Of a stretch of DNA of 64,000 bases, positions 3,388 through 32,003 are shown one piece after another. Origin of the DNA: Escherichia phage vB_EcoM-813R1. A program made the position numbers and the translations under genes. Numbering within the stretch: the first letter of the stretch is position 1; the number at the start of each line of letters is the position of its first letter. The notes beneath the pieces were generated by a model. The model did no database searches and had not been told where the DNA came from. It saw nothing but the letters and a program-made list of their open reading frames with translations. The DNA is taken from sequence record ON470617.2. The stretch is one strand, 5' to 3'.

Positions 3388-4595
3388 TCAGGCTGTCGCC
3401 TGAATCATTTCGGTGGGTTCCTGCTTCAACGGGCGGCCTGACTGCACCATCCCTCCACAGGCAAGTACGGCGTGCCCCGCCGCTAAAATGTTACGAGCGC
3501 CGTTTACATCGGCGTTCGCTGTATATCCACATACCTGGCATCTGAATTTACTTTGTGACAGGCGATTTTCTTTCGCTGTATGACCACAGCACGCGCAACG
3601 CTGGCTTGTGTACGCTGGCGGAACAGCAAGCACCTGACCGCCACGCCAGAGCTGCTTGTACTCAAGCTGGCGGCGCATTTCATACCAGCCCTGATCCAGT
3701 ATCGAACGGTTTAAACCTGATTTTGCCCGGACATTGCGACCCGGATGACTTATCGTTCCCGCCGCTGACTTTGACATGTATTTAACCTTCAAATCCTCAA
3801 TGACAATCATTGCGTGGTTTTTGCTGACGGTCGTTGTGACTTTGTGAAGGTAGTCCCTGCGGATATTTGCGATACGGGAATGCAGTCGCTGTATTTTGCG
3901 TTTCTGCTTCTGCCAGTTGTTGCTGAATTTGACCTTGCGGCTTAACTGTCGCTGAAGTCTCGCCAGCTTCTTCTGGTTTTTCTGAAAACTATTTACAGGT
4001 TCAAAGACTGTGCCATCTGACAGCGTGGCGAGTTTAGCCACGCCAGCATCCAGTCCGACCATTGATGCTGAAGGGTGAACAGGAGTGGATACCTCTCTTT
4101 CTGTCTGAATACTGATGTACCACTTACCGCAGGACTGGCTGACAGTAACATTTTTCACAATACCCGTGACCTGACGGCTATTCCGGTAGCGCATCCAGCC
4201 AAGTTTCGGCAGAAAAATACGGCTGTTTTCCTGATCGAGCTTAACACCCTGCGGGTAGCGGAATGCATCATTCTGTCCCCGCTTTTTGAATCGGGGAAAA
4301 GCTGCCCGATTCTGGAAGAAGTTTTTGTAAGCCCGCTCAAGGTCTTTCAGTGACTGTTGCAATGGCTGTGAGGGAGAATCTTTAAGCCATTCGGTTTCAG
4401 TGTCTTTTTCCACTCAACCAACCAGGAAGCCATTTTCGTGTAAGGGATGTATTTTTTACCGGCCTCATGATTCTCATTCTGAAGCGCCAGAGCACGGTTG
4501 AAAACGAAACGACAAGCTCCGGCAAAGCGCCTCATTTGATGCTCCTGTTGACCATCTGGTTTTAACCGGAATTTGAATGACACCTGTTGTTTCAT
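3388..4595 (-). CDS. tnpB: TnpB (IS605 OrfB-type RNA-guided endonuclease); frame broken near 4400 in an A-run
   Basis: 341-aa C-terminal ORF with RuvC-like region and zinc finger (…[37 protein letters not shown]…) plus 82-aa N-terminal ORF ([37 protein letters not shown]…) in a different frame. Confidence 0.85.
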
Positions 4596-4693: not shown

Positions 4694-7680
4694 ATGAGCT
4701 TAAGCGATCAGGTGGTAATGGCCACCAGCATAGAAACGCTGATCGAGCTGCTAAAGAACCTGCCCGATTATGGGCGGGTTTCGTATGTGGTGACAGCGAA
4801 GGGAGACGAGGTAAAAACAGCGTTTGATATCGTCGATGCCTCAGCTATTTTGGTATCCAATACTCTGGATGGGAAAATTAATCCTGACTATCCCCGGGAA
4901 CTTCAGCCGCGCGACCGGACCCGCGCATCCAGCCTTCTTCAGGTTAACCAGATATCCAAAGATTTGCGGCCTGCTCAGCTTACCGATTCCGGATTATCCA
5001 GCCATGGCGCACCGATAATTGGTGAGGACAATGCAGTTGAGTCAGGTAATGGACGTACCATGGGGATCATTAAAGCCTATCAGGACGGTAATGCGGATCG
5101 GTATCGGGAGTACCTGATTGAACATGCGACCGAATTCGGCATACGTACTGAAAAGGTTGAATCAATGACGGCTCCGGTACTGGTGCGCCGCCGGTTAACG
5201 AAGGTTGACCGCGTTCAGTTTGCCAAGGACTCAAATATTTCTGATCTTCAGGAAATGGCAGCCAGTGAAAAGGCTTTTGTTGATGCCGACAGCATAACAC
5301 CGGCGATGATGGCGCTGTTTAATCCGTCAGAAAGCGGAGATCTGCTTAGCCGCAGTAATGACGCGTTTATTCGCGGATTCATGACGCAAGTTGGTGCCAC
5401 ACAGGCTGCTGGCCTTGTAACGGAAGATGGGCGACCAACACGGCAACTTGTTGACCGTATACAAAACGCGATCTTTGCCAAGGCATATAAGGATGCGCGC
5501 CTGGTAAGGATGGTTGCAGAAGAACCTGATCCGGATATGCGTAATGTTCTGACGGCGCTTAATGCGGCAGCCAATGATTTTGTCCAGATGCAGGCTTTAT
5601 CAGGAGAAGCGCACAAGCAGGCTGTGACAACTATTGTTGATGGCATTGAGACAGCGGATAGCCTCGATAAAAAGGCGCTGGCGGCATTGAAAGATGCGGT
5701 AGACCTGGTAAGGCAATCGAAGGAGTCAGGCCAGCATATTACCGATGTTATTGCTCAGGGGGATATGTTCAGCGAAACAGCCCCGGAAGTGAAAGCTCTC
5801 GCGTTGTTCATCGTCGCGAATAACCGTAGCGCGAAGCGTATGGCCACCGCCTTTAAATTGATGGCTCAACGTATCAATGATGAGTTACAGCACCAGGGCC
5901 AGGCGCTGGGGGATATGTTTGGCGGTGGTGATGTGTCGTTACAGGATATCCTTCGCCAGGTGTCTCAGGAACTGGAAAACGAAGGCATGCAAGGGATATC
6001 CGGCGGTCTTTTCGAGTCCGTTTCCGGCGGTAGTTACAACGGTGTTGCTCCATATACCAGCTTGCTATTACATCGGGCATCCGGCATCAAAGACATTATT
6101 CATCTGATCAGGCTGCTTTCCCGTACAGATCCCCAGGATGAACAGCTTGTACAAGTGCTTGCGCATTTTGTTCGAATGCCTGTTGCCGACGTGAATAAAT
6201 GGTGCCGATTATTCGGTATCAGCAATTCGTTACTTCGCGGCTTGTTAAATCACGCATCCTCCCTTGGGCGCGATGGCTTTGACGAGATAGCGCAGGCGAT
6301 AAAAAACGGAGATATGCCACCAGCTATTGACTGGTTTTCCATTCGCCCAACCAGGGTGAAAGCATTCCTTAGCGCGGCGCATTCGGCATCACCATTGGCA
6401 GAAATGGTTCAGAGGTTGTCGCTCATATTCACAGACCATACCGCGTTGGGTGATCTGACTCTGGACGAGATGAAAGAAGCCTCCATTCAGTGGGCCGATC
6501 AACAAAATGAGGTTAACTCAGACTTCTTGCCAGCATTCAGGAAGGCCGTTAGTAAAGCGGATGATGCCCGTGGAATTCTGAAGGCATTTAAGGCATTGCA
6601 AAGTCGTGTTAATAAACATGTCGGTGATATCGATGGGGTAACGGCGGAAGGCCGGGATATCCTTAAAGAGCACGGCATAACGCCAGAGTTTATTGATGAG
6701 ATCAGGACTGATATGCAGCGTGAGGTCGTATCGTCCCTGCAAATCGTAGCCAGAGCGTTGGCGGATGCTAATCCGAAGAGTGCGGCCATTGTTAACCGGG
6801 TTATTGGTGATATTGAAGCATCGGAGGGCATGGGGGCGCTGAAACTCTTCCTGTCGCGAGCGTTTAATCCTAACGGCAATATTCTCCTGGCATTATTGGT
6901 GAGGCTAAAAAGTATGTCAGTGAAGAAGAACTTGAGCAGCTTGACCAACTACTTAAGCGATTCTCATATAACCCGCAGACACGCTGGCAAATGAATCAGC
7001 GAAGTATGGGTTCGGTCCACGAGAAAGTGTTATCTGCCATGAACAGTGCGATCGCAAACTCATCCGTATCTGAAGAAAAAGCTCTTGAGTGGGCCGACTC
7101 TTTTATCACGGAAGAAGTGGAAGAAGCCCGCGCTGGACAGAATGGTGGGATAGACCTGCGCAAGGAACTTGCTGATATTTATCGCCTGACCGGCGGGAAA
7201 ATATCGACCTTATCAAAAGTGGTTCACCACCAGGGAAGGGCATATGCAAATCTAAATGGTGTTGTTGCTGTCAATTTGAACGATGAAAATGCAAGTGCAC
7301 TGTGGCACGAGCTGGGTCATCATCTTGAGTACAGTAACCCTGGTTTGTTAGAGAAAGCCCGGTCATTCCTGAAGGCCAATGTTGAAGGGGATAAGCCATC
7401 TTTCGTCAATATCGGTGGGCGTGGCAAGCCTGAATGGTGCTTCAGATCTCGATTGAGTAATATTTATATGGCGAAGGTATACCCGCCAGCCTCAGTAAGT
7501 AACACCGGGAAAATTCGGCAGAAATCACCGACTATTTCCAAAACGTCAGCAACGGAAGTATTCTCTATGGCTCTTCAGTTGTATCATGACAAAGAGGCCG
7601 CTGCCGCATCACTGATGAATGGTGACGGATTGCTGGAACTGTTATTAGGTGTGGCAAAGGAGCTAAATAATGCAGATTAA
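4694..7680 (+). CDS. ddrB: DdrB-like large protein (~990 aa); frame interrupted near 6890; N-terminal region has a ParB/Srx-like motif (…YPRELQPRDR…)
   Basis: 766-aa ORF 4694..6994 continues as readable protein in the frame of ORF 6991..7680 when shifted by one base near 6890 (…EEELEQLDQLLKRFSYNPQTRWQMNQRSMGSVHEKV…); position after ddrA. Confidence 0.45.
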
Positions 7681-21842: not shown

Positions 21843-22022
21843 ATAATGCATTGCTTCTCAATGCGGATTAAACTTCCCCAAATTATGGCTGTTTGCTCAC
21901 CGAGCATCGCTCAAAGAAGCACGATTCTTCAAACATATAGATAGTGATAGTGCCACAACTTCTGGCTCTAACGGGCTGGGGAGGCGGCGCTTTGTTGCTA
22001 AATGATCTGGTTTAAAATGGAT

Positions 22023-23962
22023 ATGAAAAAAGAAACGATTTTTTCCGAAGTAGAAACGGCTAACAGCAAGCAACTGGCTGTGTTGAAAGCTAATTTCCCA
22101 CAGTGTTTTGATAAAAACGGAGCCTTCATTCAAGAAAAATTGCTTGAGATTATTAGAGCATCGGAGGTTGAACTCTCTAAAGAATCATACAGTTTAAACT
22201 GGCTGGGTAAATCTTATGCCCGTTTGTTGGCCAATCTACCACCGAAAACGTTGTTGGCAGAAGATAAAACACATAACCAACAAGAAGAGAACAAGAACAG
22301 TCAAAACCTGTTAATCAAAGGGGATAACCTCGAAGTATTGAAGCATATGGTTAATGCTTATGCTGAAAAGGTGAATATGATTTACATTGACCCACCATAC
22401 AATACGGGTAAAGATGGATTCGTCTATAACGATGATCGCAAGTTTACACCAGAACAGCTTTCTGAACTGGCAGGTATCGAGCTTGATGAGGCTAACCGCA
22501 TACTTGAATTTACCACCAAGGGTTCAAGCAGTCATAGTGCATGGCTGACATTCATTTATCCTCGTCTTTATATTGCACGTGAACTTTTAAAAGAGGATGG
22601 AGTAATATTCATCTCCATAGACGATAACGAAGATAAACAGTTGGGATTATTATGCGACGAAGTATTTGGGCAAGGTAATTTTGTTGCAAAACTCCCTACA
22701 ATCATGAATCTCAAAGGCAATCATGATAACTTTGGCTTTTCAGATACGCATGAATATATATATGTATACGCTAAAAACAAAGATGTTTGTAGTTTGGGGC
22801 AATTCGATATTGATGAAAGTGAAGTTGAAAAAGAGTGGGATGAAGATGAATATGGGCTATTTAAAAGAGCTGATACATTAAAGCGTACTGGCCAAGATGC
22901 TTTTAGAAAATCAAGACCAAAAGGTTGGTTTCCGGTATTCATCAATTCAGAAAATAAGGTTTATGTAACAGATGATGATAAACCTCTTAACGAAGATGAC
23001 TATGTACTTTACCCAGTAAGCCCTACGGGTGAAGAGCTTTCATGGTCGTGGGGAAAGAAAAAATAAATGATGAGTTTTATAATCTAATAGTAATAGATAT
23101 AAAAGATGGTAAAAATATCTATAAAAAACAGCGGCCTGCTCTTGGAGAGCTACCAACTAAAAAGCCAAAATCAATTTGGTATAAACCTGAATATAGTACA
23201 AGCACGGCGACAACTGAGCTTAAAAATCTTTTAGGTGCAAAATTATTTGAAGGACCAAAACCTGTTCCTCTTATAACCGATCTTGTAAAAATAGGAACAA
23301 AAAAGGATTCATTAGTTCTTGACTTTTTTGCTGGCTCTGGTACGACAGCAGAAGCTGTTGCATATTTAAATGAAAAAGATTCAGGCTGTAGGAATTTTAT
23401 ATGCATACAAAAAGATGAAGTTATAAATAAAACAAAGAATGCCTATTCTCTTGGCTATAGATCTATTTTTGAAATAACAAAAAAAAGGATACAGGAGGTA
23501 TTTAAAAAAAGCACAACCACAAGTGATAATGCGGCTAAAATAGGTTTCAAAGTGATTCATACTATTGATGACTTTAGAGCAAAAGTTGAGTCTGAACTTA
23601 CGCTCACTAATCATACATTCTTTGATGATGCGGTATTAACGCCTGAACAGTATGATGCCCTATTGACTACATGGTGTGTATATGATGGTAGCTTGTTAAC
23701 AACACCTATTGAAGATGTTGATCTTAGTGGCTATACAGCACACTTTTGCAATGGCCGTCTGTATTTGATTGCACCTAATTTTACTAGCGAAGCATTGAAA
23801 GCGTTGCTCCAAAAGCTGGATTCAGATGAAGATTTTGCCCCAAACAAAGTCGTGTTTTATGGTTGTAACTTTGAAAGTGCAAAACAAAGGGAGCTTAATG
23901 AGGCGCTAAAAAGTTATGCTAACAAAAAATCTATTGAGTTAGATTTAGTGGTAAGGAACTAA
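22023..23962 (+). CDS. mod: Type III restriction-modification methyltransferase Mod (EcoP1I-like); frameshift in an A6 run at about 23055
   Basis: ORF 22002..23066 with the DPPYN catalytic motif and ORF 23042..23962 with the AdoMet motif DFFAGSGTT; junction …SWSWGKKK* / …KEKINDEFYN… differs by one A in a homopolymer. Confidence 0.85.
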
Positions 23963-23964
23963 TC

Positions 23965-26873
23965 ATGTCAAAAGGGTTCACATTCGAAAAGAACTTACCG
24001 CATCAGAAAGCAGGTGTCGATGCGGTGATGAACGTTTTTGTTTCCGCGACATCTCATCAGGAGGATAATGTTTCTATTCGCCTGTTAGTTAATCCAGAAT
24101 TACGGCTTACTGAACAGCAATACTATAAAAATATAAAAAAGTTCAGGAACTCAATGGTATTGAACATGTAAAAAATAATTACGATGCTGGAAGCAACGTA
24201 ATCGATGTTTCTATGGAGACAGGTACAGGTAAAACGTATACCTACACTAAAACAATTTTTGATCTGAACAAATCATTTGGCATTAATAAGTTTATCATTA
24301 TTGTTCCTACTCTATCGATCAAAGCTGGAACAGTGAACTTTTTGAAAAGCGATGCGTTAAAAGAACACTTTAGAGATGATTATGAGCGTGAAATAAAGAC
24401 TTACGTTGTTGAAAGTCAGAAAAATGCCGGTAAAAGCACAAAATCGTATATGCCTCAAGCTATACATGATTTTGTTGAAGCTAGTAATTTCAATAAGAAA
24501 TATATACACGTTCTTGTTATTAACACGGGAATGATTCACTCTAAGAATTTAAATTCCACTTATGATGTTGGCTTGCTTGACAATCATTTTGATTCTCCCT
24601 TTTCAGCTCTTGGTGCGGTAAAACCATTCATTATCATTGATGAACCACATAAATTTCCTACTGGTAAAAAGACATGGGAAAATATAGAGAAGTTTAATGC
24701 TCAATATATTATCCGCTACGGTGCGACCTTTAGTGAAGGCTATAAGAATTTAGTTTATCGACTTACAGCAGTGGATGCATTTAATGAAGACCTTGTTAAA
24801 GGTATTGATGCGTACATTGAGGATATTGTTGGTGATGGTGACGCCAACCTAAAGTTCATTAAATCTGATGGGGAAGAAGTTACATTTGAGCTAAATGAAA
24901 ATAACAAGAAAACTTTATTTAAGTTAACAAAAGGTGAATCTCTATCTAAGACACATAGTGCTATTCACGATTTAACTCTTGATGCCTTAGGCAAGAATAC
25001 AGTAGTGTTGAGTAATGGTATTGAGCTAAAAATTGGTTGCTCAATAAACCCCTATTCTTACGATCAGACACTTGCTGACAGCATGATGAGGAAAGCTATC
25101 AAAGAACACTTTAAGTTAGAAAAAGAGTTTCTGACACAAAGGCCACGCATAAAGCCTCTTACTCTTTTCTTTATTGATGATATTGAAGGTTATCGTGACG
25201 GTAATAATATTGCCGGAAGTTTGAAAGCTAAGTTCGAAGAATATGTTTTGGCAGAAGCTAATGAACTGTTAAAAATAGAAAAAGATGAGTTTTATAGTAA
25301 CTATCTTGAAAAAACAGTTAAAGATATATCTTCCGTTCATGGCGGTTATTTTTCAAAAGATAACAGTGATAAGGATGATAAAATCGAGAAGGAAATCAAC
25401 GAAATCCTTCATGACAAAGAGCTTTTGCTGTCTTTAGATAATCCACGTCGTTTCATTTTCTCCAAATGGACGTTGCGTGAGGGATGGGATAATCCTAATG
25501 TCTTTCAGATCTGTAAGCTCCGTTCGAGCGGTAGTACCACATCCAAGCTTCAAGAGGTAGGGCGCGGTTTGCGTCTTCCTGTGAATGAATACATGTGTCG
25601 AGTGAAAGACCGCAATTTTACCCTTAAATATTATGTCGATTTTACAGAAAAGGATTTTGTTGACTCACTTGTTAAAGAGGTCAATGAGAGTTCTTTCAAA
25701 GAAAGGGTTCCAAGTAAGTTTACTCAAGAGCTTAAGGAACAAATCAGGGCTCAGTATCCTGAGCTTTCATCCAGAGCACTAATGAATGAACTTTTCAATG
25801 ATGAAATCATTGATGAAAATGATAATTTCAAAGATTCAGATGCCTACAGCCGCTTAAAATCCAAATATCCAGCAGCATTCCCTATAGGAGTGAAACCAGG
25901 TAAAATCAAAAAAGCTACTGATGGAAAAAGACGCACTAAAATGCGTGTTGGTAAGTTCAGTGAGCTGAAAGAACTATGGGAATTAATCAATCAAAAAGCG
26001 GTGATTGAGTACAAAATAAACAGTGAAAATGAGTTTTTATCCATTTTCAAGTCATTCATGCTCGAAGAAACAGAACGATTTACCAAATCAGGCGTTCATA
26101 CTCGCATTGATAAAATTTACATCCACAATGATATGGCAATGTCGAAAAGCATTGTTAGTGATGACGATGACTTTGCTAAGCTAAACACAATGAGTTATCG
26201 AGAGTTTCTCGATAACTTATCACAGACTATTTTTGTTAAACATGATACTTTACATAAAGTTTTTTGTGATATAAAAGACACTATTAATATCACTGAATAC
26301 CTGAATATTCAAACAATCAGAAAAATTAAATCTGGTTTTAGTAAGTATTTGTTGAACAATTCGTTTAACAAATTCAGCCTCGGATATAATTTGATTTCGG
26401 GTTCAATTCATCCCACAAAGTTCACAAATGCTGATGGTAAGCCTCTAGACGAGGTATTATCAAGTGATCTTGGTGTATTACAGGATAATTCAAAAGCACC
26501 ATTAGATACTTATCTTTTGAAGAGGTTTTTTATGATTCAGAGCTTGAAAGGCGTAATATAACAGATAGAGAGATCCAGTCTGTTGTTGTTTTTTCAAAGA
26601 TACCGAAGAATTCTATTAAGATCCCGGTAGCTGGTGGATACACTTACTCACCCGATTTTGCTTATGTTGTAAAAACAGCAGAAGGTGATTATCTTAACTT
26701 TATCATTGAAACAAAAAACGTAGATAGTAAGGATAGTTTACGGCTTGAAGAAAAAAGAAAATTGAACATGCCAGGCGCTTTTCAATCAAATAAGTCAGTC
26801 TGTTAAAGTTGAATTCAAAACGCAGTTTGCTAATGATGATATTTATCAGTTAATCAAGAGCGCATTACCATAA
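23965..26873 (+). CDS. res: Type III restriction enzyme Res subunit (EcoP1I-like helicase-nuclease); at least three frame interruptions
   Basis: 68-aa N-terminal ORF 23965..24171, 782-aa ORF 24213..26561 starting at Walker A (METGTGKTYT), and further readable C-terminal segments 26562..26873 in other frames; first junction is an A6 run near 24145. Confidence 0.8.
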
Positions 26874-26882
26874 TTCCAGTTT

Positions 26883-26907
26883 AAAAGGAGGTGAAAACCT
26901 CCTTTTT
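26883..26907. terminator. bidirectional hairpin terminator (aaaaggaggt-gaaa-acctcctttt) between convergent res and the mat-position gene
   Basis: Perfect 10-bp inverted repeat flanked by A/T runs on both sides. Confidence 0.6.
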
Positions 26908-26948
26908 ATGACATCCAACACGACCTGAAAGAAGTGGCGCTCAGGTCG

Positions 26949-27590
26949 TTAAAAATAGTTTCCCTTTCCAGTTAAGATTCCATGTGGAACGCTTTTTTCC
27001 GCAAGTCTCTGTGTGCCGCGAATTATGTTAATCAGTGGGCTTAGTAACGATGGTTCCTGGCGTGGCTCAACTTCTCCAGCCATTGCCCTGATGTAGTCGG
27101 AGTTTGCAACGTTGTTGTATTCCGTTGCGAAGCAGCATAACAACGTCAGAACGTGCTCTGTCGTTATTTCGCTCCAGTTGATGTTGAAAAATTCATCGCC
27201 TTTTTTGTCATGTTCGGAATCGAAGATGCTTTGGTGGAGGATGTATTTGCCGGATTCCTTGCGCGGTAACTTGATCGCTTTCTGGCGTTCCAATTCCTTG
27301 TAAATCTGCATTGCTTCAATCAGTACCGGTCTACCGTTCATGAAGGGATCACGCAACCTTACACGCTGGCCAACTCGACCGGTAATAAAGCTGTTTTCCT
27401 CTTCCACCAGCACGATAAAACCCTTTTCCTCTTTTTCTCGCAATTCGCGCAGCAGCTGGAGTTCCATATCGCGGCGGCGTTCAGGGTAGCTGGTCCGCTC
27501 AGCCATTATCAGCTCATTGTTGATCCATGCAGCAGTCATTGACGCCGGTTTGCCGACGCTCATTGAAACAACGCATATTTTCTTATCCAT
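26949..27590 (-). CDS. hypothetical protein, 213 aa (P1 mat position)
   Basis: ORF 26949..27590 between res and ref; positional assignment only. Confidence 0.5.
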   Translation of the reverse strand: MDKKICVVSMSVGKPASMTAAWINNELIMAERTSYPERRRDMELQLLRELREKEEKGFIVLVEEENSFITGRVGQRVRLRDPFMNGRPVLIEAMQIYKELERQKAIKLPRKESGKYILHQSIFDSEHDKKGDEFFNINWSEITTEHVLTLLCCFATEYNNVANSDYIRAMAGEVEPRQEPSLLSPLINIIRGTQRLAEKSVPHGILTGKGNYF

Positions 27591-27777
27591 AGCGCCCCTA
27601 CAAAAAGAAAAGCCACCAGCGGCGGCTTAGCAATACAACAGAAGGTAGCGCCCGGTACTCAGACTGTGCCGTCCATGGAATATTTGAAAAGGGATCCATC
27701 CGTACCGGGCGTGTGATGATTCTGACTCAAGTCACTTGTCAGTTGTCAATCATTTAAGATTAAAAATAATATATTTA

Positions 27778-31129: not shown

Positions 31130-31978
31130 ATGATAAATTATGTCTACGGCGAACAACTGTACCAGGAGTTCGTCAGCTTCAGGGATCTCTTTCTAAAAAA
31201 GCTGTTGCACGCGCCCAACACGTTGATGCCGCCAGCGACGGTCGTCCTGTACGCCCGGTTGTCGTTCTACCGTTCAAAGAAACGGACAGCATTCAGGCTG
31301 AAATTGATAAATGGACTTTAATGGCGCGGGAACTGGAACAGTACCCAGACCTCAATATCCCAAAGACTATTTTATATCCTGTGCCTAACATCCTTCGCGG
31401 TGTGCGTAAGGTTACGACTTATCAGACAGAAGCTGTGAACAGCGTCAACATGACCGCTGGCCGCATTATTCATCTGATTGATAAGGACATTCGCATCCAG
31501 AAAAGCGCGGGGATCAATGAGCACAGTGCGAAATACATAGAGAACCTGGAAGCAACAAAAGAGCTAATGAAGCAGTACCCGGAGGATGAAAAATTCCGTA
31601 TGCGTGTACACGGCTTTAGCGAAACAATGCTGCGCGTCCACTACATTTCCAGTAGCCCTAACTACAATGATGGTAAATCAGTTAGTTACCATGTGCCGCT
31701 GTGTGGTGTGTTTATCTGCGATGAAACTCTCCGTGATGGAATCATCATCAACGGTGAATTCGAGAAAGCAAAATTTAGCCTTTATGACTCTATAGAACCG
31801 ATCATCTGCGACCGCTGGCCGCAGGCAAAAATATATCGCCTGGCAGATATTGAAAATGTAAAAAACAAATTGCCATCACTCGCGAAGAGAAAAAGGTCAA
31901 ATCAGCCGCATCAGTTACGCGCAGCCGTAAAACTAAGAAGGGGCAGCCAGTAAACGACAACCCCGAAAGCGCGCAATA
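31130..31978 (+). CDS. c1: C1 repressor of lysis; two single-A homopolymer frameshifts (about 31203 and about 31868)
   Basis: N-terminus MINYVYGEQLYQEFVSFRDLFLKK (ORF 31130..31321) then the body in the frame of ORF 31093..31953 (…AVARAQHVDAASDGRPVRPVVVLPFKETDSIQAEIDKW…); C-terminal tail …KQIAITREEKKVKSAASVTRSRKTKKGQPVNDNPESAQ* is recovered in a shifted frame. Confidence 0.9.
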
Positions 31979-32003
31979 GTTTCTATCCGGCATGGTCAAT
32001 GAG

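Follow-up and report, generated by a model that had tools for sequence, protein, structure and literature searches.

Frame breaks in the EcoP1I-type mod and res genes of a P1-like phage-plasmid: almost certainly an assembly artefact in a known system

Introduction

Does the restriction-modification (R-M) locus at 22023..26873 of the 64,000-b stretch of DNA analyzed here (hereafter, the window) record the decay of a restriction system, a phase-variable gene caught in its OFF state, or sequencing error? As given, neither mod nor res has an intact open reading frame, as the first-pass annotation had already recognized. It had proposed either that restriction was lost while the Dar/Dmt antirestriction functions were retained, or that homopolymer errors had broken both genes, and had singled out an A-tract in mod as a potential phase-variation switch. 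Our analysis indicates that the breaks are almost certainly an assembly artefact in a known system. To judge from the sequence, the locus is very probably an ordinary, intact EcoP1I-type operon of a P1-like IncY phage-plasmid, and its five frameshifts errors of an unpolished long-read consensus.

Results and discussion

Identity of the mod-res locus

The locus consists of two genes encoded on the same (plus) strand, with mod located directly 5′ of res:

22023..23962, plus strand: mod, EcoP1I-type Type III methyltransferase and specificity subunit, 646 aa in relatives; one frame break
23965..26873, plus strand: res, Type III restriction subunit with helicase and endonuclease, 970 aa in relatives; four frame breaks

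The outer limits, 22023 and 26873, are exactly those assigned earlier. The mod gene has annotated counterparts in P7, P1, and pEC-16-35-3, to which it aligns. After repair, which makes the sequence equal to the reference, Mod contains the N6-adenine methyltransferase domain N6_N4_Mtase (PF01555, E = 2e-43) and the C-terminal Type III domain T3RM_EcoP15I_C (PF18273, E = 4e-34), whereas Res combines the ResIII domain of superfamily 2 helicases (PF04851) with the C-terminal endonuclease domain RE_endonuc (PF19778). Repaired Res also matches the NCBIfam model PRK15483 with 1081 bits (cutoff 564) and aligns along its full 970 residues to EcoP15I Res (4ZCF_C, 2004 bits). Furthermore, repaired Mod (646 aa) is a single residue (S294F) off the EcoP1I Mod of P1 (X06287), and repaired Res (970 aa) is two residues off P1 Res (X06287). 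Both the domains and the near identity to the P1 proteins thus bear out the proposed EcoP1I-like Type III identity. By analogy with EcoP1I, Mod would recognize and methylate the target site, and a Res2Mod2 complex would be expected to cut unmodified DNA.

A separate deletion, near 27601, lies in the vicinity of mat. We considered the possibility that it breaks an extended mat ORF and rejected it, because the long P7-type mat frame is also closed in the intact reference. The short, 213-aa form of mat therefore applies to this lineage, and the deletion is upstream of this form.

Five single-base deletions

In the sequence as given, the mod frame starts at 22023 and stops at 23066, after ...SWSWGKKK, with the remaining part of Mod encoded in another frame to 23962, and res falls into fragments of 68 aa and 782 aa plus what remains of the C-terminal part. 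Aligned with P7, P1, and pEC-16-35-3, the locus shows exactly five 1-base deletions, one in mod and four in res, so that the "three or more" breaks counted earlier in res are in fact four. All five deletions are located in simple tracts (A7 to A6 in three cases, T5 to T4, and CCCAGG to CCAGG). These tracts, and the longest homopolymer of the locus, are as follows:

23058..23063, plus strand: A6 tract in mod (A7 in relatives), the sole mod frameshift, codons K-K-K-I, residues ~345-348
23479..23486, plus strand: A8 tract in mod, the longest homopolymer of the locus, intact in the window; A7 in the public record pTB422
24135..24140, plus strand: first frameshift in res; A6 here, A7 in relatives
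26515..26518, plus strand: second frameshift in res; T4 here, T5 in relatives
26751..26756, plus strand: third frameshift in res; A6 here, A7 in relatives; the public record pTB422 also has this tract shortened
26771..26775, plus strand: fourth frameshift in res; Dcm site CCAGG here, CCCAGG in relatives; belongs to the Dcm-associated class of errors

The A-tract of mod had initially been placed at 23049..23055, which is about 8 nt too low. A stretch that measures 5101 b in the window is 5106 b long in every phage record and in almost every plasmid and E. coli record. When the five bases are restored, 22023..26873 becomes identical at 4856/4856 positions to the intact mod-res of the E. coli plasmid pEC-16-35-3; the five deletions are accompanied by zero substitutions.

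Five frameshifts in the sequence as given would be in line with real pseudogenisation, whereby EcoP1I restriction and modification were lost through the decay of a costly defence or through selection against restriction. Indeed, this operon is naturally inactivated elsewhere: in the reference P1, mod is interrupted by an insertion sequence (mod749::IS5), and some plasmids carry IS1 and ISVsa5 insertions in the mod-res operon. RefSeq also marks mod or res as "frameshifted" in four public plasmids. The latter are single frameshifts and lie at different tracts (pTB422 shares the shortened res tract at 26751..26756), and therefore provide no evidence of a shared switch; they may themselves be errors. 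Against pseudogenisation stands the combination of five deletions with not one substitution in 4.85 kb. Moreover, loss of mod with res initially active would be lethal in ways that depend on the order of events, and four independent lesions in res would be superfluous in a dead gene.

Error pattern across the window

The window is collinear with pEC-16-35-3 over all 64,000 b, and differs from it by 55 deletions, 3 insertions, and 6 substitutions. Indels thus outnumber substitutions ~10:1, and deletions outnumber insertions 18:1. The indel rate in mod-res (5 in 4.85 kb) equals that of the entire window (58 in 64 kb). Longer runs are more often shortened: A/T runs of up to 5 lose a base in ~0 cases, A/T6 runs in 13 of 73 (18%), and A/T7 runs in 13 of 19 (68%), with the longer G/C runs affected as well (G/C5, 7/33; G/C6, 2/3). 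G/C runs of 3-4, by contrast, are shortened only where CCWGG overlaps them (13 of 59 such runs, compared with 0 of 845 others; Fisher p = 1e-16). The same motif holds two of the six substitutions, all of which are transitions, and one insertion. Dcm or homopolymer classes cover 57 of the 64 differences, namely, 21 that are Dcm-associated and 36 deletions in homopolymers of at least 5. Such tract-specific deletions throughout the 64 kb, linked to both tract length and Dcm sites, strongly support the reading of the breaks as homopolymer-type errors, which had been offered as one of two options.

Genuine homopolymer frameshifts could, in principle, also have accumulated plasmid-wide in a mutator host deficient in mismatch repair. 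The concentration of deletions in homopolymers and the exclusive presence of transitions among the six substitutions would be in line with this scenario, given that both are features of mismatch-repair-deficient spectra. However, mutator spectra consist mostly of transitions, lack a 10:1 excess of indels, and include both +1 and -1 changes, whereas here the ratio of deletions to insertions is 55:3 and that of indels to substitutions is 10:1. Nor would a mutator explain the limitation of short G/C-run deletions to CCWGG, and a plasmid-prophage with frameshifted c1, pacA, and darB would not be maintainable as a functional element. The probability of a mutator origin appears to be negligible.

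The two dominant classes of Nanopore consensus errors in Enterobacteriaceae are those at Dcm motifs (CCAGG/CCTGG) and in homopolymer lengths (Wick et al. 2019, PMC6591954). Judging by the error signature alone, the sequencing platform was most likely Oxford Nanopore. Under the long-read error explanation, four of the mod-res frameshifts would be under-called homopolymers, and the fifth would reflect one base dropped where Dcm methylates CCWGG. The actual molecule would then be expected to encode full-length, presumably active Mod (646 aa) and Res (970 aa). If the breaks are long-read errors, they therefore represent no biological loss.

Restriction and antirestriction genes are damaged alike

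Indels are found in 25 of the 66 CDSs in the window (~40%), that is, in 23 genes besides mod and res, and are spread over genes irrespective of function or essentiality. There is one deletion in darA, five in darB, and two each in dmt, c1, and pacA; ref and lxc are affected too. Because darA, darB, and dmt are damaged as well, the suggested contrast between lost restriction and retained Dar/Dmt antirestriction is false. For the same reason, and considering that the indel density in mod-res is the window average, we rejected locus-specific decay of the R-M system.

This distribution also bears on pseudogenisation in general. Lesions alike in kind and density occur in the 23 remaining affected genes, among them c1, the repressor gene needed for prophage maintenance, and pacA, the terminase gene, both frameshifted. 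The dependence of the deletions on Dcm context lacks a mutational rationale. Thus, we consider real pseudogenisation of the operon very improbable. Were the frameshifts nevertheless real, they would point to a dead prophage rather than to selective loss of restriction.

The A-tract of mod and phase variation

Phase variation via simple repeats is common among Type III mod genes, and a 1-base change in a tract located within the ORF, as is the case here, would toggle expression. Accordingly, the A-tract of mod could be viewed as a slipped-strand switch, with the sequenced population being OFF (A6). We compared 80/81-nt queries carrying either A6 or A7 with PLSDB and complete genomes of E. coli. 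A7 is present in 48/48 plasmid records that include the sequence, as well as in each of the 38 full-length matches in E. coli, and neither set has a single A6, so that nothing points to allelic differences in tract length among the 86 full-length public records. In the Klebsiella mod orthologue, with 89% identity, the sequence at the tract position is AAGAGGAAAAT, in which the homopolymer is broken up; hence, the A-run of mod represents just lysine codons.

The survey of Type III mod genes by Atack et al. (2018, PMC5909438) applied a criterion of at least 9 bases for mononucleotide tracts, although tracts of 7-8 are able to switch in C. jejuni and N. meningitidis (PMC5909438). The tracts of mod fall below the 9-base criterion, being A7 in relatives and A6 here, with A8 as the longest run in the gene. 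The A7 tract is positioned mid-gene, within residues 257-394 of Mod, a central stretch that is not alignable to EcoP15I Mod. A switch in mod would also leave the four similar frameshifts in res unexplained, and A/T7 runs are commonly shortened anywhere in the window. The suggestion that the tract serves as a phase-variation switch is therefore not sustained, given its constancy in the 86 records, its disruption in Klebsiella, and its length below 9 bases, and it is highly improbable that the sequenced population was in an OFF state.

Low-rate slipped-strand switching at either the A7 (23058..23063) or the A8 (23479..23486) tract of mod appears extremely unlikely as well. If it did occur, a subpopulation of carriers of P1-like plasmids would turn off modification, and restriction with it, and both A6 in the window and the A8-to-A7 change in pTB422 would be genuine OFF variants and not errors. 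We also considered and rejected programmed frameshifting at the A7 tract: the A-run begins at a codon boundary (AAG AAA AAA ATA), which, judged by reading, is not the usual register of a slippery heptamer, and all relatives encode Mod in one frame.

Implications

The main value of the locus is one of caution, namely, that the window derives from an unpolished long-read assembly. All pseudogene calls in the window are therefore suspect, as are other findings built on frameshifts in homopolymers or CCWGG motifs. Once corrected, the locus is a textbook EcoP1I system, carried by P1-like IncY phage-plasmids, which are a common family in E. coli and Salmonella. It makes no open question testable.

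Comparison with known systems

The differences between the window and its reference resemble the Oxford Nanopore error profile (PMC6591954) in clustering at Dcm motifs and homopolymers; the attribution of this assembly to that platform is based on the error signature alone. The locus shares with phasevarions (modA, modH, and others) a homopolymer inside a Type III mod ORF, where a change in length turns the gene off, but its tract has 7 bases rather than at least 9, is invariant in the 86 full-length records, and is not kept in the orthologue.

In the case of EcoP15I, the structural prototype of Type III systems (PDB 4ZCF), the N- and C-terminal parts of Mod are near identical and the domain content is alike, whereas Mod residues ~257-394, the stretch that contains the A7 tract, do not align. 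We take this stretch to be the target-recognition region; EcoP1I recognizes AGACC and EcoP15I CAGCAG. EcoP1I itself (P1 X06287; P7 AF503408) shows the same order of mod followed by res, the same 2-nt spacer, 99.7% nucleotide identity, and the same flanks, darB-ulx-lxc upstream and mat downstream. Unlike in the reference P1, with its mod749::IS5 allele, mod in the window is free of IS5, and what sets the window as written apart from EcoP1I are its five 1-base deletions.

Single-base deletions in mod and res

Both genes of the EcoP1I-type Type III restriction-modification operon are interrupted in the window:

22023..23962, plus strand, mod
23965..26873, plus strand, res

The limits reported by the first-pass annotation (22023-26873) are exact, the first position being the annotated mod ATG and the last the final base of the res stop codon, and its observation that both genes are out of frame is borne out by the text of the sequence. 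The mod frame ends at a stop at 23066 (after SWSWGKKK), with the remaining Mod in another frame up to 23962, and res consists of pieces of 68 aa and 782 aa plus a C-terminal remainder. Base-by-base alignment to phage P7 and to the closest relative, the E. coli plasmid pEC-16-35-3 (NZ_CP093228.1), which carries an intact operon, showed that the only frame-affecting changes are five 1-base deletions. The A6 tract noticed in mod is among them, although it lies at 23058..23063 rather than 23049..23055.

Single-base deletions in mod-res (relatives to window; window coordinates)
mod, A7 to A6, 23058..23063
res, A7 to A6, 24135..24140
res, T5 to T4, 26515..26518
res, A7 to A6, 26751..26756
res, CCCAGG to CCAGG, 26771..26775

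With the five bases restored, the 4,856-bp mod-res sequence matches the intact pEC-16-35-3 operon at all positions. The region 22001..26000 is a low-GC island (35% G+C, backbone ~50%), which fits an R-M cassette gained horizontally; because of this composition, mod-res contains many A/T runs that draw homopolymer errors.

Probable sequencing-error signature of the window

All 64,000 b are collinear with positions 31733..95784 of pEC-16-35-3 in one alignment, with 55 single-base deletions, 3 inserted bases, and 6 substitutions. The interruption is not peculiar to mod-res, which shows no enrichment (5 indels in 4.85 kb vs 58 in 64 kb). A/T runs of up to 5 are essentially never shortened relative to pEC-16-35-3, compared with 13 of 73 A/T6, 13 of 19 A/T7, and 2 of 5 A/T8 runs, and G/C runs of 3-4 are shortened only where they overlap a Dcm site, CCWGG (13/59 vs 0/845; Fisher p = 1e-16). 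Of the other differences, two substitutions out of six, a single insertion, and a deletion of the central A in a CCAGG likewise lie in Dcm motifs. In total, 21 Dcm-associated differences and 36 deletions in homopolymers of at least 5 explain 57 of the 64 differences. These rules point to the sequencing process, not to biology, and a mutator origin of the deletions is scarcely credible. In Oxford Nanopore consensus sequences of Enterobacteriaceae, two classes of error are reported to predominate (Wick et al. 2019, PMC6591954), those at Dcm motifs and those in homopolymer length, and the signature suggests that the platform of this assembly was Oxford Nanopore. Collectively, the mod-res frameshifts are almost certainly sequencing errors: artefactual breaks in an already known system.

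The substitutions at 4896 (CCAGG to CCGGG) and 29851 (CCAGG to TCAGG) fall within Dcm motifs and are probably methylation-related miscalls rather than real SNPs, which leaves just four substitutions over 64 kb as candidates for true ones. At 54791..54795, inside the CDS 54215..55230, GGAAAAAATGGCAAACG of the relative is replaced by GGAAAAATGCAGCAAACG, with one A lost and CA inserted; this difference belongs to neither the homopolymer nor the Dcm class, and either a genuine variant or a local error of the consensus may lie behind it.

Distribution of indels among genes

When the indels were mapped to the 66 CDSs annotated in pEC-16-35-3, 25 carried at least one, including mod (1), res (4), the c1 repressor (2), the pacA terminase (2), ref (1), lxc (1), and further genes of morphogenesis and the replication region. 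Since darA (1), darB (5), and dmt (2) are affected as well, the proposed loss of restriction with retention of Dar/Dmt antirestriction fails: taken at face value, the sequence shows everything broken at one rate. Real decay of mod-res, which the broken frames alone might suggest, is accordingly very improbable. With 25 of 66 CDSs apparently frameshifted, any frameshift or pseudogene finding in the window is doubtful, and all findings that rest on one should be discounted.

The c1 gene (31130..31979) bears two A7 to A6 deletions, near 31194 and 31859, of the same error class as those in mod and res. From established P1 biology, a doubly frameshifted c1 would not allow stable upkeep of the prophage-plasmid; were the deletions real, the prophage would be unable to stay in lysogeny. 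A T6 to T5 deletion is also found in a TnpB-family gene among the darA-operon genes (3388..4595, minus strand), annotated in pEC-16-35-3 as an RNA-guided endonuclease.

The mod A-tract and phase variation

The A-tract had also been put forward as a possible phase-variation switch, of interest even in a corrected sequence. In a survey of Type III mod genes, the criterion for mononucleotide tracts was a length of at least 9 bases, with the remark that tracts of 7-8 can switch in some species (PMC5909438). Using an 81-nt query with A7, we found that 48 of 49 PLSDB records match at 100%, the remaining one, an E. albertii plasmid, having A7 as well and a substitution elsewhere; the A6 version of the window has an exact match in no PLSDB record. 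All 38 full-length matches in complete E. coli genomes are likewise 100% identical, with A7. The tract lies mid-gene, within the central Mod stretch unalignable to EcoP15I Mod, and a Klebsiella orthologue (89% identity) reads AAGAGGAAAAT at this position, indicating that the A-run is merely successive Lys codons and no conserved element. Nothing thus supports switching of an invariant A7, and phase variation of mod is extremely improbable, although switching at very low rates is conceivable.

Frameshifts and insertions in related plasmids

RefSeq flags frameshifts in mod or res of four public P1-like plasmids:

pTB422, mod A8 to A7, and res A7 to A6 at the same tract as in the window
pMTY9803, mod, one AT unit missing from an (AT)n run
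pUTAK-8-2, mod, AGACC to AGAACC
pPEC145_2, res, A5 to A6

The changes affect simple tracts at different positions and give no evidence of a switch common to the four; they may or may not be errors. The extra A of pUTAK-8-2 lies within AGACC, the EcoP1I recognition sequence, and is therefore possibly a basecalling error induced by methylation from the active Mod itself.

The well-documented inactivation of the operon is IS insertion, by IS1 or ISVsa5 in some plasmids and by IS5 in reference P1 (AF234172, 2376..3570), where mod is split (mod749::IS5), whereas the window, P7, and most plasmids have mod without this IS5.

Relationship to EcoP1I and EcoP15I

Over 21900..27000, the window shares 99.7% identity with phages P1, P7, and phi456 in their mod-res region, and 99.7-99.9% identity with dozens of P1-like plasmids from E. 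coli and Salmonella. After repair, a single residue (S294F) separates Mod (646 aa) from P1 EcoP1I Mod (X06287), and two residues separate Res (970 aa) from P1 Res. These near-identities and the domains of the repaired proteins, N6_N4_Mtase and T3RM_EcoP15I_C in Mod and ResIII and RE_endonuc in Res (NCBIfam PRK15483, 1081 bits), bear out the original EcoP1I-like Type III label. EcoP15I Mod can be aligned with the repaired Mod save for residues ~257-394 of the latter, a central stretch that corresponds to the target-recognition region. The Res subunit of EcoP15I (PDB 4ZCF) matches the repaired Res end to end.
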